Source of the DNA: a virus
Direction: 5' to 3' (one strand)
Length of the DNA: 19,248 nt
UHGV virus genome: UHGV-0135199
Shown here: positions 1,104 to 12,565 of the stretch, piece after piece
How positions within the stretch are numbered: the stretch's first letter is position 1
Layout: each line of letters opens with the position of its first letter
Program-made: the position numbers and the translations under genes
The notes under the pieces: generated by a model
Databases searched by the model: none
What the model saw: only the letters and a program-made list of their open reading frames with translations
What the model was told of the DNA's origin: nothing

Positions 1104-1376
1104 ATGGACAATAACACCATTTCTCTACAGGAGTTGCTCGACTGCATTTCCAGGCTTCGGGATGATGTAAATGCCCTCACTGTTGCATTTTCATATCTGG
1201 CCTTATCAATTCCCAGAGAACAAATGCAACCAACACTGGCATCGCTCCTGCTTGAATCACGCAACCCCAAATGGTCCCAGGAACAACAAAATTCTTTCAA
1301 GTGGCTGGCGGCATTACTGGAAGAAAAATATGCTGGTAAAATTACCATTTCGGTGGATTCTTCAGAGAATCAGTAA
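1104..1376 (+). CDS. Hypothetical protein (90 aa), convergent with the lysis genes
   Basis: ATG at 1104 preceded by AAGAGGA with a 6-nt spacer; no family recognised; its 3' end overlaps the 3' end of the 1342..1686 gene by about 35 bp. Confidence 0.45.
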   Translation: MDNNTISLQELLDCISRLRDDVNALTVAFSYLALSIPREQMQPTLASLLLESRNPKWSQEQQNSFKWLAALLEEKYAGKITISVDSSENQ

Positions 1377-1686
1377 TTCTTCCTGGTAGCTTTCCTTTGT
1401 AGGTTATCCACACATTCTGCGCATCTAAAATTACGGGGCGCTTTTCCGGCGACTGCTCATCCCCTTCACATAACCCGGCAGCAACATCCAGGAAGACCTG
1501 TCTGATGCTCCTTCTGGCTGCTGCCTCATAAAACTCCAGCGCGGCACCTTCAACACGGTCCAGCGAGATGTCCAGGTCAAAAATTTCACCGTCAAAGCGT
1601 TTTTTGTCCCGTAACGCTAAAGTTACCGTAACTTTATTCTCAAAATTGCGGATCCCTTTCACAATCACTTCATAGTTTTGAGTCAT
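1342..1686 (-). CDS. Hypothetical protein (114 aa) between holin and endolysin; possibly YdfR-like
   Basis: ATG at 1686 with GGGAGAG SD lying over the holin stop (tight coupling); N-terminus MTQNYEVIVKGIRNFENKVTV recalls YdfR of the Qin prophage (unverified recollection). Confidence 0.55.
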   Translation of the reverse strand: MTQNYEVIVKGIRNFENKVTVTLALRDKKRFDGEIFDLDISLDRVEGAALEFYEAAARRSIRQVFLDVAAGLCEGDEQSPEKRPVILDAQNVWITYKGKLPGRITDSLKNPPKW

Positions 1687-1690
1687 TGAA

Positions 1691-1906
1691 TTACTCTCCC
1701 CGTGCAGCCTTACGCTTGTCTTCTCTTATTTTGAAATACAGATTCGTCAGATAAGTCAGGAAGCCCAGAACCAGACTCCCCAGTACACCAATCGCAGCCC
1801 ACTGTGACGGACTGACCTGATCAAGCCACTGTAAATACCAGTAGCCAGCACTGCCTGCGGAGGTGCCGTAGGCAATGCCCGTTGAAATTTTATCCATGGA
1901 TTTCAT
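1691..1906 (-). CDS. S: Class II holin (pinholin, phage 21 S family) with dual-start motif MKSMDK
   Basis: [71 protein letters not shown] matches S21 as recalled; GGGGGTGAGG SD upstream; the ORF-track N-terminal extension is rejected. Confidence 0.9.
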
Positions 1907-2009
1907 AGCCTCACCCCCGCAGATAACGGATGGCGTATTCAGTTCAGGAAGATCGAGGGATAAATGATGAGACCTATTCACCTGCGGTGAGGGATTCACA
2001 TTATACAAA

Positions 2010-2744
2010 TTAATAAGCCAGAGATTTTTCTGGTATATCTTTTGAAGAGTACTGATTTGGGGTCACGCCAAAATATTTTCTGAAAACAGAAATAAAATAA
2101 GACACATTTTCATAACCACAAATTCCTGCGACCTCACAGATTGAATAGCGGTGGGTATTTAACAAATTTTCTGCTACAACCATTCTTTCTTCAAGAATAA
2201 TTTTACTAAATGACACCCCTTCATCTTTTAACTTTTTCTTTAACAGGCTTTCACTCAAATACAATCTTGAGGATATATCTCTTAGTCTCCAGCATGCCGC
2301 AATATCCGTATGGATAATAGCCTTAACCTTTCCCCCAACACCATTCAGACATCCGAATAAAAAAGTCTGAAGCATTTTATCTGATGATAAAACCGCAAGA
2401 CATGCAAATGATATTGTACTCTTGATTAATGTCGTATTTGCGCCACTATGATTCAGGCAAATGATTAACTGGCTAAGCAATGAGAAATCAAAAGCACTGA
2501 CCATTAAGTATGCGGGATACCCTCTTCTGACGGAGTGATGTGCAAGAGTATTTATTTTGAAGTAATCGTTAACAGTTTTCTCATCAAAGTCAGCGATAAT
2601 CACATTATCAGGGCATGCAGAGAAAACATTTCTTAAACTATAATCTACAAGAATAGCATCCCCCCTTTCAAGAAAGTGCTCTCTCTTGCCAAACCGGACA
2701 TCAAATGAGTTCAATACCAGGATGACAGAACATATGACCGGCAT
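2010..2744 (-). CDS. AraC/XylS-family transcriptional regulator (accessory gene between Q and holin)
   Basis: C-terminal HTH signature ([31 protein letters not shown]) typical of AraC family; ATG at 2744 preceded by AGGTGGG; region visibly AT-rich relative to neighbours. Confidence 0.8.
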
Positions 2745-2887
2745 ATTACCCACCTGATATTATGAATATTTAAATTAAGTATACGCAGGAAATCACACTT
2801 TACCAAATATGCAATAACAAAATGCTGCGGGAAAAGCCTCACTACCTGTTATCAAGCGGTAGACATACAAATCCCATCATTGAGAAA

Positions 2888-2916
2888 ATCCTATCCATTT
2901 TTTTTGAAAAATGCAA
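2888..2916 (-). promoter_or_regulatory. Candidate late promoter pR' (-35 TTGCAT, 17 bp spacer, -10 TAGGAT) just downstream of Q
   Basis: Hexamers read on the minus strand at the position where lambda carries pR'/qut; AT-rich context makes chance matches likely. Confidence 0.25.
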
Positions 2917-2947
2917 GCATCATGTCGCCATCTTCGGCGAAAATCAT

Positions 2948-3700
2948 CTATCTCGTCACTTTTCTCAATTGCGCTTCTGCGTAAGCTTCTTCTTGCCAGC
3001 ACTTTGTAACAAGTTTATCAATAATGTCAGCATACCCCTTGTACCACTGATAATCCGTCAGGTCCGGTACCAGTTTCTGGACATGATGCCGCGCCAGTGT
3101 GGTTGGTAAACGACTAAACCGGTTTCCATTGCAACGCCCACAAATCTTATAAACAGGCGCGCCATGAAGCCGGGTCCTTTTTTCATCCAGGACAATACCT
3201 TTACCCTTACACCCTCTGCACGCTGTGCTGACTTCTCCCTTACCATGGCAATGCTGACATAGTTCCTTCCCCCACTCTTCCTTGATAACAGATTCCCCGC
3301 TTCTGGAGTGTTTCACCACTTCGCGCAATACATTATGAAATCCAGTACCAGCACAATGCTCACAGCGAGCCTTACTTGCCGCAGACCTGGAATAATCAGC
3401 AAAGGCAAAATTCACAAGGTAAGGGATAATCTGTAACCGGGTTTCTTCACTCAATTTATTCAATGTCGGGTTATCCAGTGCCATCGCGTAATTGAGCAGA
3501 CCTTCAATCGCAAACTGAGGATCCTGAACGCCAGCTTTTGCCAGGAATAAGGCAAACCCAAGCGGTGCTTTCGACTGCACCATCCCCTGCGCAGCCATCA
3601 CATCCGTAATTGATAAACCACCTGAGTCTGTCGCCGGTGCGTCATCGCTCAATTTTGGAGATTTTGGGGAGTAATATTTTGGTAATGCCTCAAGATTCAT
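2948..3700 (-). CDS. Q: Late-gene antiterminator Q (lambda Q family)
   Basis: MNLEALPKYYSPKSPKLSDD...TDVMAAQGM... aligns with lambda Q N-terminus and C-terminus (...KVTR); multiple CxxC zinc-binding motifs; GGAGAG SD upstream of ATG at 3700. Confidence 0.85.
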   Translation of the reverse strand: MNLEALPKYYSPKSPKLSDDAPATDSGGLSITDVMAAQGMVQSKAPLGFALFLAKAGVQDPQFAIEGLLNYAMALDNPTLNKLSEETRLQIIPYLVNFAFADYSRSAASKARCEHCAGTGFHNVLREVVKHSRSGESVIKEEWGKELCQHCHGKGEVSTACRGCKGKGIVLDEKRTRLHGAPVYKICGRCNGNRFSRLPTTLARHHVQKLVPDLTDYQWYKGYADIIDKLVTKCWQEEAYAEAQLRKVTR

Positions 3701-5431: not shown

Positions 5432-6391
5432 TCAGCTAATTGCAAAGATATTAAAAATAACTTTAGGGAGTGCGAAAGATGAAATAAAAAGCACAACCAT
5501 AAAAATGGCATGCTTAATAAATGATGAGCTTGTAAAAAAAGCTCCTCCCTTGCTAATTCCTGCCATAAAAACAAAGATAAAGCTAATTAAGCACGACCAT
5601 ATCACTAACAAAACTGAGATTGACATGCTTAAAGACATATCGCGAGAAAATACGTTTACTGAAATAGAAATAAAGGTAAAGAAAGAAGCAAATAAAGCAA
5701 TGACACCCAGCATTGAGTTCCTTGCTGTAATTACTTCCGATTCAAAGCTTTTAACTTTCTCATGTATATCTTTTTCAGCATTTGATAATGTTGCATCAAA
5801 TTGCTCAATCTTTGCAGTTTGCTGAGATAATGAAGACATTACCTTACCTATTTTTCTTTTAGTATCATTAATATTCTTTTTGCTCTTATTCAACTCTTGC
5901 GAAAAATTGGTTAGTTGATCATTGATATTTTTCCAGAGGATGTTATCAATATCACTTTTTGTATATTTTTTTACATTCTCTTTATTAAAAGAAATTGTAG
6001 ATTCAGAATTATTATTAACAAAGTAATTAGATAAAATGGCATTAGAGACAGTATTATCCATCACCGGCACAGTTGCTTTTGAACTGTATTTTATAGCTTC
6101 ATGCGACATTTCTTTTTCATTAACAAAAAGAGAGGTTTTTATTAAGTTTTGTGGTGCCGCGTCTTTGATAGATATACTTTCCCGCTCTTTATTTGAAGCT
6201 GTTGCAGTTTTATTATCTATCTGCAAATTACTAATTTTTTGTACCCCTCCTGTATACGTAGATGTACTATTCGATACTTGTGAATTAGAATAAAGTGAAT
6301 GATGCGCAGTTCTTTTTGCCATGTCATCGTTGACTATAGCATTATTTTTTGCAGTTCTTTTTATATCCTTTTTATTATCATCCTTATTCAT
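5432..6391 (-). CDS. Hypothetical membrane protein (319 aa): N-terminal low-complexity Asn/Ser/Thr/Lys-rich region, central probable coiled coil, three C-terminal hydrophobic helices
   Basis: Hydrophobic stretches at about residues 228-248, 257-279 and 293-316 (hand counted); ATG at 6391 lies 14 bp after the upstream gene's stop with GAGGTGG SD in the gap; strongly AT-rich; no family recognised. Confidence 0.7.
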   Translation of the reverse strand: MNKDDNKKDIKRTAKNNAIVNDDMAKRTAHHSLYSNSQVSNSTSTYTGGVQKISNLQIDNKTATASNKERESISIKDAAPQNLIKTSLFVNEKEMSHEAIKYSSKATVPVMDNTVSNAILSNYFVNNNSESTISFNKENVKKYTKSDIDNILWKNINDQLTNFSQELNKSKKNINDTKRKIGKVMSSLSQQTAKIEQFDATLSNAEKDIHEKVKSFESEVITARNSMLGVIALFASFFTFISISVNVFSRDMSLSMSISVLLVIWSCLISFIFVFMAGISKGGAFFTSSSFIKHAIFMVVLFISSFALPKVIFNIFAIS

Positions 6392-6405
6392 TCAGCCACC
6401 TCACA

Positions 6406-7071
6406 TTACTGAATTTCATTCACTTTACTTAAAAAGGCTTTTTTTGTTTTTTCTGCGGTATATTTATCTTTAAATATAAAACTCTCGATTGTATTCACAT
6501 CGATCTGTTTCACTAGCATTGGTTGTTCTCTGACAATATCATATCCTGGCATAATCGACAAATGACAATTAAATATGGACTGCTCAAACTCGAATTTTTT
6601 ATTATACATTAAATTAATATCTTCAATTATTTCGCTATCATTCTGCATGTTGTTACTAAGATAGTTTTTAACAATCTCTTTGTTTGGGTTGTTGTTTAAT
6701 TCCGCCTTAACGGCCACCAAGCCTATTCTGATAATATCCTTATTGAGTTCTTTATGGATACCAACCACACTATCGAAAACTTCTTGAAACAAATGTAAGT
6801 CTACCTCTTGCTCAGAATCCATACGTTCAAAAAACAAATCACATCTCTGCAGTGAGCATTGAACTCTAAATTTATTATCTATAGAAAACAATTGGAGACG
6901 AGGAATCTCTGGTGGGGTATCCATAGGTAAAACGCCCAACATCATATTGTTTGTTAATTCAATACCTGCCTTCTTTTTAAAAGTTTGCCTAATAAAATAC
7001 GACATTCCATCGAAATCGACAGTCGTTGATGAATCGTAAAAAAATACCATTTGTAACTGTATGATTTTCAT
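6406..7071 (-). CDS. Hypothetical soluble protein (221 aa), first gene of the two-gene AT-rich cassette
   Basis: Long ORF in very AT-rich DNA, translationally coupled to the downstream membrane protein; no recognisable motif; start codon choice uncertain (weak SD at 7071). Confidence 0.65.
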   Translation of the reverse strand: MKIIQLQMVFFYDSSTTVDFDGMSYFIRQTFKKKAGIELTNNMMLGVLPMDTPPEIPRLQLFSIDNKFRVQCSLQRCDLFFERMDSEQEVDLHLFQEVFDSVVGIHKELNKDIIRIGLVAVKAELNNNPNKEIVKNYLSNNMQNDSEIIEDINLMYNKKFEFEQSIFNCHLSIMPGYDIVREQPMLVKQIDVNTIESFIFKDKYTAEKTKKAFLSKVNEIQ

Positions 7072-12328: not shown

Positions 12329-12400
12329 GCGCGGCGTTACCGCATACCAATTACGCTTCACTCGAGGCGTTTTTCGTTATGTATAAATAAGGAGCACACC

Positions 12401-12565
12401 ATGCAATATGCCATTGCAGGGTGGCCTGTTGCTGGCTGCCCTTCCGAATCTTTACTTGAACGAATCACCCGTAAATTACGTGACGGATGGAAACGCCTTA
12501 TCGACATACTTAATCAGCCAGGAGTCCCGAAAAATGGATCAAACAATTATGGCTATCCAGACTAA
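12401..12565 (+). CDS. cIII: cIII (inhibitor of FtsH-mediated cII degradation)
   Basis: Hand-translated [54 protein letters not shown]; AAGGAG SD; not on the ORF track (54 aa). Confidence 0.9.
   Translation: MQYAIAGWPVAGCPSESLLERITRKLRDGWKRLIDILNQPGVPKNGSNNYGYPD

Follow-up and report, generated by a model that had tools for sequence, protein, structure and literature searches.

The window analyzed here, a 19,248-nucleotide stretch of viral DNA (UHGV virus genome UHGV-0135199), carries a gene for an AraC/XylS-family transcriptional regulator (minus strand, 2010..2744 including the stop codon) between the gene for the antiterminator Q and the holin gene of a lambdoid prophage. We think it probable that this is a functional cargo gene (moron) of a lambdoid Escherichia prophage, that its product is a two-domain activator of the GadW/YdeO/AppY/PatE subfamily, and that its role is in lysogenic conversion; such a role is the most likely one, and the prophage-encoded regulators AppY, PatE and PsrA/B are of the same kind. 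The assignment draws on the open reading frame (ORF) itself, on Pfam, NCBIfam and PHROG profiles, on an AlphaFold (AF2) model and on the ratio of nonsynonymous to synonymous substitution rates (dN/dS).

The ORF starts with ATG and encodes 244 amino acids (aa); a GTG start three codons farther upstream would give 247 aa. A Shine-Dalgarno sequence, AGGTGG, can be read from the sequence at 2750..2755 (minus strand), 5 nt before the ATG, and of 11 family loci that we compared 6 have it, with variants or no clear match at the other five. The first-pass annotation of this DNA, made from its letters alone, had described the product as a 244-aa AraC/XylS-type regulator, and profile searches bear this out. 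The dual helix-turn-helix domain scores above both Pfam cut-offs, with 53.2 bits for HTH_18 (cut-off 33.6) and 52.5 bits for HTH_AraC (cut-off 26.6), both over residues 161–236. Among NCBIfam models the best match is the YdeO model, which covers residues 1–234 and thus the full length (138.5 bits), with GadX second (102.4 bits), and PHROG 1450, a phage family listed with function unknown, matches end to end (E = 3e-87).

By BLASTP the closest proteins outside the window lineage are uncharacterized 243-aa ORFs of phages Lambda_ev203, 1H12 and IdasGreatGrand (62–65% identity), which also belong to PHROG 1450. The closest characterized relative is the product of ECs_0287, the sole AraC-type gene in Sakai prophage Sp1 at thrW, which we take to be PatE (see below) and which is 55% identical over its full length; GadW (36%), YdeO (34%) and AppY (32%) follow, also over the full length, and GadX matches partially (34%). 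The similarity is unevenly distributed, with 69% identity to ECs_0287 in the DNA-binding domain and 46% in the N-terminal domain, where identity to GadW, YdeO and AppY is 21–24% (AppY 21%). In a neighbor-joining tree the regulator occupies its own branch, sister to the ev203/Idas clade and beside the PatE clade, within the GadW/AppY/YdeO group. The MxxxCSV(I/V) N-terminus typical of the GadW/YdeO/AppY/PatE subfamily is present, and its Cys5 is invariant in 26 sequences, as are S164, S166, L167, L168, K169, L172 and E175 of recognition helix 3. The first recognition helix is almost invariant (69–85% identical) across the subfamily, and K169 of the regulator aligns with K170 of AppY, at which the mutation K170E abolishes DNA binding. 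Full-length homology and the recognition-helix residues together argue for membership in this subfamily.

An AF2 model built from 26 homologs is confident (pLDDT 86, pTM 0.78) and predicts a beta-rich N-terminal domain with additional helices (residues 1–135, pLDDT mostly 87–91) and a C-terminal domain of seven helices (residues 136–234). In Foldseek comparisons the latter superimposes on the GadX DNA-binding domain 3mkl with a target-normalized TM-score of 0.89–0.93, a root-mean-square deviation of 1.1–1.4 Å and 45% identity. Over the full length the best matches are Rns, CsvR and ToxT (E values of roughly 1e-10 to 1e-8), virulence regulators of the AraC family with solved full-length structures; these share the two-domain architecture but differ from the regulator in sequence (17–19% identity) and in the relative orientation of the domains (TM 0.43). 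As modeled, the protein is confirmed as a two-domain AraC/XylS member, with both the dual helix-turn-helix C-terminal domain and an N-terminal companion domain, which in this family serves in dimerization or the sensing of signals.

The gene is conserved. Compared with the relatives that are 62–65% identical its dN/dS is 0.16–0.19, which indicates purifying selection, and across eight Escherichia prophages it differs by only 0–2 nt in 735. The order Q, regulator, holin is kept in all eight, while their early regions and morphogenesis genes differ in the usual mosaic fashion. Degradation of the ORF in related genomes, against which the first-pass annotation had set its proposal, is not seen, as the frame is intact in every copy seen. 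The atypical base composition is the one thing that might suggest a pseudogene in decay or an ORF that arose by chance in AT-rich DNA, and this idea is refuted by the full-length domain matches, the confident two-domain model, the intact frame in all copies and a dN/dS well below 1. The exact protein, labeled "MULTISPECIES: Escherichia" at NCBI, is indexed in 127 blocks of a public assembly collection, and we saw 67 contigs that carry it. At the megablast level the lineage is absent from 5426 complete RefSeq E. coli genomes, its exact junction sequence is absent from IMG/VR viral contigs (a protein search there returned only relatives of 38–40% identity), and a scan of species-representative genomes gave only distant AraC domains in unrelated phyla; the lineage is rare. 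A PADLOC search gave the regulator no defence-system match, and an Rfam scan of 1900..3000 found no RNA family.

The regulator gene occupies most of an AT-rich cargo cassette of about 0.9 kb (1938..2848, 36.8% GC, no strand assigned) that is bounded by homology breaks against phages with the same Q and the same holin: megablast homology to Q-linked DNA ends at 2849, and homology to holin-linked DNA begins at about 1937. The AT-richness noted in the first-pass annotation is real, the GC content being 36.6% in the ORF, 47.5% in Q and 49.5% in the lysis region. So is its placement of the gene in a variable accessory slot, since phages with the same type of Q carry other cargo there, namely small ORFs and four tRNAs in PhiR47_1, cold-shock genes in 2H10 and PhiR42_1, and a DNA methyltransferase and other genes in mEp460. 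A composition unlike the flanks (36.8% versus 47–50% GC) and a site of variable cargo are what would be expected of a moron at the sequence level.

Members of this protein subfamily recur in the slot. In seven of its lineages a homolog comes after Q, and the Q genes concerned belong to four families. These are the window lineage, ev203/Idas, P0012 (56% identity), P0021 (46%), P0026 (42%), P0029 (41%) and P0028 (39%); a downstream holin gene, of at least two types, is confirmed in six of the seven, and the P0021 contig stops right after the regulator homolog. Lambda_ev203, 1H12 and IdasGreatGrand have their homolog in the same Q-to-holin slot, but with a different Q type and with genes for a Blc lipocalin and a YbgA-like protein as extra upstream cargo. 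The PatE clade alone is placed elsewhere, its gene following tail-fibre genes beside an insertion sequence (IS) fragment.

The comparison that the first-pass annotation drew with the stx slot of Stx phages is borne out, and phiSTEC1575-Stx2k has an AraC homolog and stx2 in the same interval. There (L063, 4001..6835), and in L061/L062 (5001..7840), a P0028-type homolog of 237 aa (39% identity) lies directly upstream of the stx2 A and B genes; the phiSTEC1575-Stx2k record shows three tRNA genes between the two, and in all of these loci a gene for an IraM/PmrD-like anti-adaptor comes right after stx. By their annotation and homology, the toxin and two predicted stress-network regulators occupy one Q-to-holin interval in the Stx2k loci. 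When we searched the open-access literature for AraC-type genes at this Q-S position, nothing specific came up; the recurrence of this subfamily there, including beside stx2k, and the terminator-less layout described below seem to be undescribed in that literature.

The cassette appears to carry its own promoter. A promoter scan of the minus strand predicts a -35 hexamer TTGGTA (2806..2801), a 17-nt spacer and a -10 hexamer TATACT (2783..2778), with 9 of 12 consensus matches over 2778..2806 and a predicted start near 2771. The motif is positionally conserved: TATACTT is invariant upstream of five homologs in flanking DNA that has otherwise diverged, and a -10-like hexamer (TATACT, TATAAT or TATATT) lies 32–36 nt before the ATG at all 11 family loci, including those whose protein is only 38% identical. 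The Lambda_ev203, 1H12 and IdasGreatGrand genes share the motif, and the gene that we take to be patE has the same TATACT 33 nt before its ATG. The sequence TATACTTAA at the cassette promoter resembles the extended -10 element favored by sigma-S, which would agree with reports that patE and appY are expressed in stationary phase. A resemblance to a GAD box (the GadE site) at 2812..2825, upstream of this promoter, was rejected: 0.35 such matches are expected per window, 137 of 2000 local shuffles equal it, and it is not kept in relatives, while the true GAD box upstream of gadA in K-12 was verified.

This conservation bears on the question of whether the gene does anything for its host. It might be a passenger with little or no host effect, in an interval that tolerates insertions, silenced by H-NS and transcribed late only as a by-product. 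The unrelated cargo that sister phages have in the same slot (tRNAs, csp genes, a DNA methyltransferase) would suit such a view, as would a GC content (36.6%) typical of H-NS-silenced DNA and the lack of an obvious benefit from a regulator made minutes before lysis. We nevertheless consider it improbable, given the purifying selection, the intact frame in every copy seen, a promoter motif kept in homologs down to 38% identity, and the clear phenotypes of the characterized relatives.

A second promoter lies farther upstream. The first-pass annotation had reasoned that the gene would be induced with the lysis genes if pR' lay upstream of it, and a promoter like λ pR', with its spacer and pause element, is indeed found there at 2916..2876. 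By homology, pR' itself (2888..2916, minus strand) has a -35 hexamer TTGCAT (2916..2911), a 17-nt spacer and a -10 hexamer TAGGAT (2893..2888), downstream of which comes TTTCTCAATGATGGG; four same-Q phages have kept the whole block, hexamers included. In an alignment with the experimentally defined λ pR' the -10 hexamer, some of the spacer and the first transcribed bases line up, and the -35 hexamer was paired with λ TTGACT by eye, the aligner having put a 10-column gap there. The predicted start is at about 2881 ± 2. A -10-like pause-inducing element, AATGAT (λ AACGAT), is recognized at 2876..2881 (minus strand) from the alignment of CAATGATGGG with λ CAACGATGGG. Lambdoid pR' promoters have a Q-binding element between -35 and -10 and a pause element within the first ~25 transcribed bases, and the window retains both of these regions. 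The consensus match of pR' is modest (TTGCAT/TAGGAT, 7 of 12).

What the window lacks is tR'. The pR' promoter is constitutive in λ and in Stx phages, and its transcripts are normally stopped at tR'. All four same-Q phages have this strong intrinsic terminator (-12.6 to -14.8 kcal/mol) 108–132 nt after the Q stop codon, with fold z-scores of -2.7 and -4.2 for the region. In the window homology to these phages ends at about 2849 (about +33), where a short λ-like GGTAGTGAG is followed by cassette sequence; the insertion point is thus about 35–55 nt downstream of the pR' start, past the Q-loading elements and where the relatives have tR'. There is no intrinsic terminator from 2881 to 2744, and the tR' hairpin is missing both from the window and from all eight lineage members. 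We looked for another terminator in the leader of pR' and rejected the idea, as the leader folds no better than shuffled sequence (z = 0.0 and -0.6). By comparison, a strong terminator lies 34–130 nt after Q at 9 of 9 other Q-S loci that have a family member, including those of Lambda_ev203 and IdasGreatGrand; the group formed by these two and 1H12 has tR', unlike the window.

The arrangement is therefore like that of stx only in part. As with the stx genes, the regulator gene is cargo placed between Q/pR' and the holin gene, downstream of the Q-loading elements, where Q-modified polymerase would read it on induction. Stx phages, however, have tR' between pR' and the cargo, which would make expression need Q, and in the window no such terminator can be recognized; moreover, the stx product is a toxin released by lysis and the product here is a regulator.

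A strong terminator is missing after the gene as well. The only terminator-like structure from pR' to the holin gene is a weak hairpin (2018..2033, minus strand) with a 5-bp stem and -6.1 kcal/mol, inside the last eight codons of the regulator. On the opposite strand the same hairpin (2017..2034, plus strand) is a slightly better terminator with the tail ATATCTTTTG, and it could stop antisense transcription from the lysis region. The 103 nt that separate the stop codon of the regulator from the start of the holin gene (1907..2009, minus strand) fold no better than shuffles. In Lambda_ev203 and IdasGreatGrand (and in the ev203/1H12/IdasGreatGrand group generally) a terminator of -11.3 kcal/mol follows the gene, and by alignment this spacer contains a decayed copy of it, diverged and non-pairing where ev203 has the terminator. 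In ev203, Idas, L064, L059/L060 and L065 a terminator of -10.6 to -14.9 kcal/mol lies within about 85 nt of the regulator stop; in the stx-linked L061 and L063 one of -14.2 kcal/mol lies about 290 nt downstream of the gene, before stx, and in L066 the first (-16.7 kcal/mol) is about 335 nt downstream. The window lineage thus has no strong intrinsic terminator anywhere from pR' to the holin gene, a state found at none of the nine other loci, and as judged from its sequence the regulator cassette does not have the terminator of its own that is looked for in a moron. The first-pass annotation had mentioned neither this loss of both tR' and the cassette terminator, nor the conserved cassette promoter, nor the recurrence of the family in the slot.

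This layout is the basis for a different account of expression, possible in our view but doubtful, in which the regulator gene sits in a constitutively transcribed late-operon leader, the loss of tR' has made pR' the main lysogenic promoter, and the holin and lysin genes are shielded in some non-canonical way (by the 2033..2018 hairpin, Rho or H-NS). In its fuller form, to which we give the same low credence, the regulator gene has replaced tR', the terminator that relatives have after the gene is gone too, and the late promoter doubles as a lysogenic-conversion promoter; what keeps the lysis genes off would be a translation-coupled weak terminator at the stop codon, Rho, or H-NS acting on the cassette, or else the phage would purposely tie expression of the regulator to leaky lysis-gene transcription. 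The intact pR' and Q-loading elements, with homology to same-Q phages ending at about +33, speak for it, as do the constitutive nature of pR' in λ and Stx phages and the presence of tR' in all four same-Q phages and of a strong post-Q terminator at all nine other loci, set against its absence in all eight lineage members. But pR' matches the consensus only modestly, the cassette's own positionally conserved promoter would suffice for lysogenic expression, and unterminated pR' transcription should express the holin and endolysin, yet the module is present in apparently complete prophages.

The regulator might instead act mainly on the phage, tuning late or lysis gene expression or the balance between lysis and lysogeny. 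This would explain why homologs recur beside Q and holin genes (seven lineages, four Q families, and at least two holin types among the six lineages with a confirmed holin), and nothing strong separates the regulator from the holin gene in the window lineage. We find it very unlikely even so: the PatE clade sits elsewhere, after tail-fibre genes, the characterized members act on host promoters, and at the other loci the gene is set apart from the operon of the phage by strong terminators. Moreover, we know of no AraC-type protein in lambdoid late regulation.

Under the interpretation we favor, a lysogenic-conversion cargo gene, the regulator would be transcribed in the lysogen from the cassette promoter, probably preferentially in stationary phase and modulated by H-NS as are appY and patE. 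With tR' missing, it may also be read from the constitutive pR' in the lysogen, and after induction Q-modified RNA polymerase would transcribe it strongly along with the lysis genes. The protein would bind AT-rich promoter DNA through its two helix-turn-helix motifs, and its most likely target is the host acid-fitness (AR2) regulon (gadE, hdeAB, gadBC), as for PatE, PsrB and AppY, so that the stress resistance of the lysogen would be altered; in LEE-positive hosts (LEE, locus of enterocyte effacement) it could indirectly change type III secretion.

The proposal that the regulator rewires host expression, made in the first-pass annotation by reference to other acquired AraC-type regulators, thus rests on homology to PatE and AppY. 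PatE of enterohemorrhagic E. coli O157:H7 (prophage CP-933H, Sakai Sp1) activates gadE, gadBC and hdeAB and represses LEE genes. AppY, from the DLP12 prophage of E. coli K-12, is a direct activator of gadE and gadY that makes cells more acid-resistant, and its own expression depends on RpoS and H-NS. More generally, PatE, PsrB and AppY activate gadE/hdeA and acid resistance, the acid-fitness-island promoters (gadE, hdeAB, gadY) respond to these three as well as to GadX/W and YdeO, and AppY, PatE and PsrA/B, besides activating the acid fitness island, have indirect effects on type III secretion, motility and biofilm. By analogy with these proteins, activation of acid-fitness-island promoters is the most likely activity of the window regulator.

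The likenesses are not complete. The regulator resembles the protein that we take to be PatE in being a prophage-encoded AraC-like protein of about 245 aa; it resembles AppY in being prophage-borne, in subfamily and in the conserved DNA-binding Lys, but AppY is distant in sequence, its gene is at the tail-fibre end of DLP12, and its regulon also includes hya and appCBA. From the chromosomal AR2 regulators GadW, GadX and YdeO, which are of the same subfamily, it differs in being mobile, AT-rich and prophage-borne. Reviews place PatE (z0321) on O-island 8 and the AraC-like psrA (z1789) on O-island 50. No AraC-family coding sequence is annotated in the prophage next to potB, the location of psrA according to reviews, in Sakai (L083, 1545001-1595000) or in EDL933 (L084, NZ_CP008957 1630001-1680000). 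This prophage carries nleL, espN and espK, and there is no AraC ORF in the Q-to-nanS gap of Sakai.

Several points weigh against the interpretation we favor. An identity to PatE of 55%, falling to 46% in the N-terminal domain, is no assurance that regulon or signal are shared. The NCBIfam matches fall far short of the equivalog cut-offs (138.5 versus 348 bits for YdeO, 102.4 versus 500 bits for GadX), and by this measure the regulator is an ortholog of neither. The equation of ECs_0287 with PatE (z0321) is our assumption, which presumes in turn that Sp1 corresponds to O-island 8. Finally, as pR' is constitutive and normally stopped at tR', its transcripts should cross the regulator gene and reach the holin gene, and constitutive transcription of lysis genes is hard to reconcile with a stable lysogen unless pR' is weak, the stop-codon hairpin is better than it looks, or Rho or H-NS intervenes.

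Phage genes flank the cassette. Upstream and on the same strand, the antiterminator Q (2948..3700, minus strand; 250 aa, PF03589 Antiterm, E = 3.7e-53) is of the λ/82/Qin type with a zinc-finger insertion; it matches the λ Q structure 7ubm (E = 4.7e-38) and is called as 250 aa in 8 of 8 related loci. Its alignment with λ Q falls in two stretches split by a CxxCxGxG zinc-finger-like segment, on which Pfam DnaJ_CXXCXGXG scores 32.1 bits, marginally below its cut-off of 32.7. Downstream, the first lysis gene encodes a phage-21-type class II holin (pinholin) with the dual start MKSM (1691..1906, minus strand; PF04971, E = 1.6e-34), and it is followed by a DUF1327/YdfR gene, lysozyme and Rz. The DUF1327/YdfR gene (1342..1686, minus strand), between holin and endolysin, is overlapped at its 3′ end by a 90-aa ORF on the plus strand (1104..1376, PHROG 2411), and this opposite-strand pair recurs in many related loci (L005-L011, Chlobot and the Stx2k phage).

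The rest of the DNA in the window represents one half of a lambdoid prophage, that from int to Rz, with integrase, RecT/YqaJ, Gam, cIII, N, cI, cro, cII, O, P and the nin region. A λ cIII thermoregulator RNA element is present at 12388..12446 on the plus strand (Rfam RF01804, 88.5 bits). A second AT-rich insert (29–34% GC; 5432..7071, minus strand), between replication gene P and a NinB-like gene, has two genes that encode proteins of 221 and 319 aa, the C-terminal part of the latter looking hydrophobic by eye; they fall in PHROGs 24110 and 25335 (function unknown), with no Pfam match and no credible PADLOC match. It is present in L005 alone among the eight related loci and could be nin-region cargo or a defence module. 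In one complete genome (L010, CP099886.1, 1..9000) the Q-regulator-holin module is in a prophage remnant that starts with an IS element adjoining a folD-fimbrial operon-fimZ-like region; this flank is about 81% identical to some E. coli, and the host may be a non-coli Escherichia.

It is already known that prophage AraC-like regulators such as AppY, PatE and PsrA/B connect with the networks that control acid resistance and virulence in E. coli, and the gene described here is an uncharacterized, rare lineage of that group. The presence of a relative beside stx2k in one Stx phage means that toxin and stress-regulator cargo would, in some phages, be in one transcription unit. The terminator-less lineage is in turn a natural test case of how lambdoid prophages silence their lysis genes, and of whether a lysogen can express genes from pR'. 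Should the regulator increase acid resistance, it would be a lysogenic-conversion factor relevant to the passage of Escherichia through the gut.

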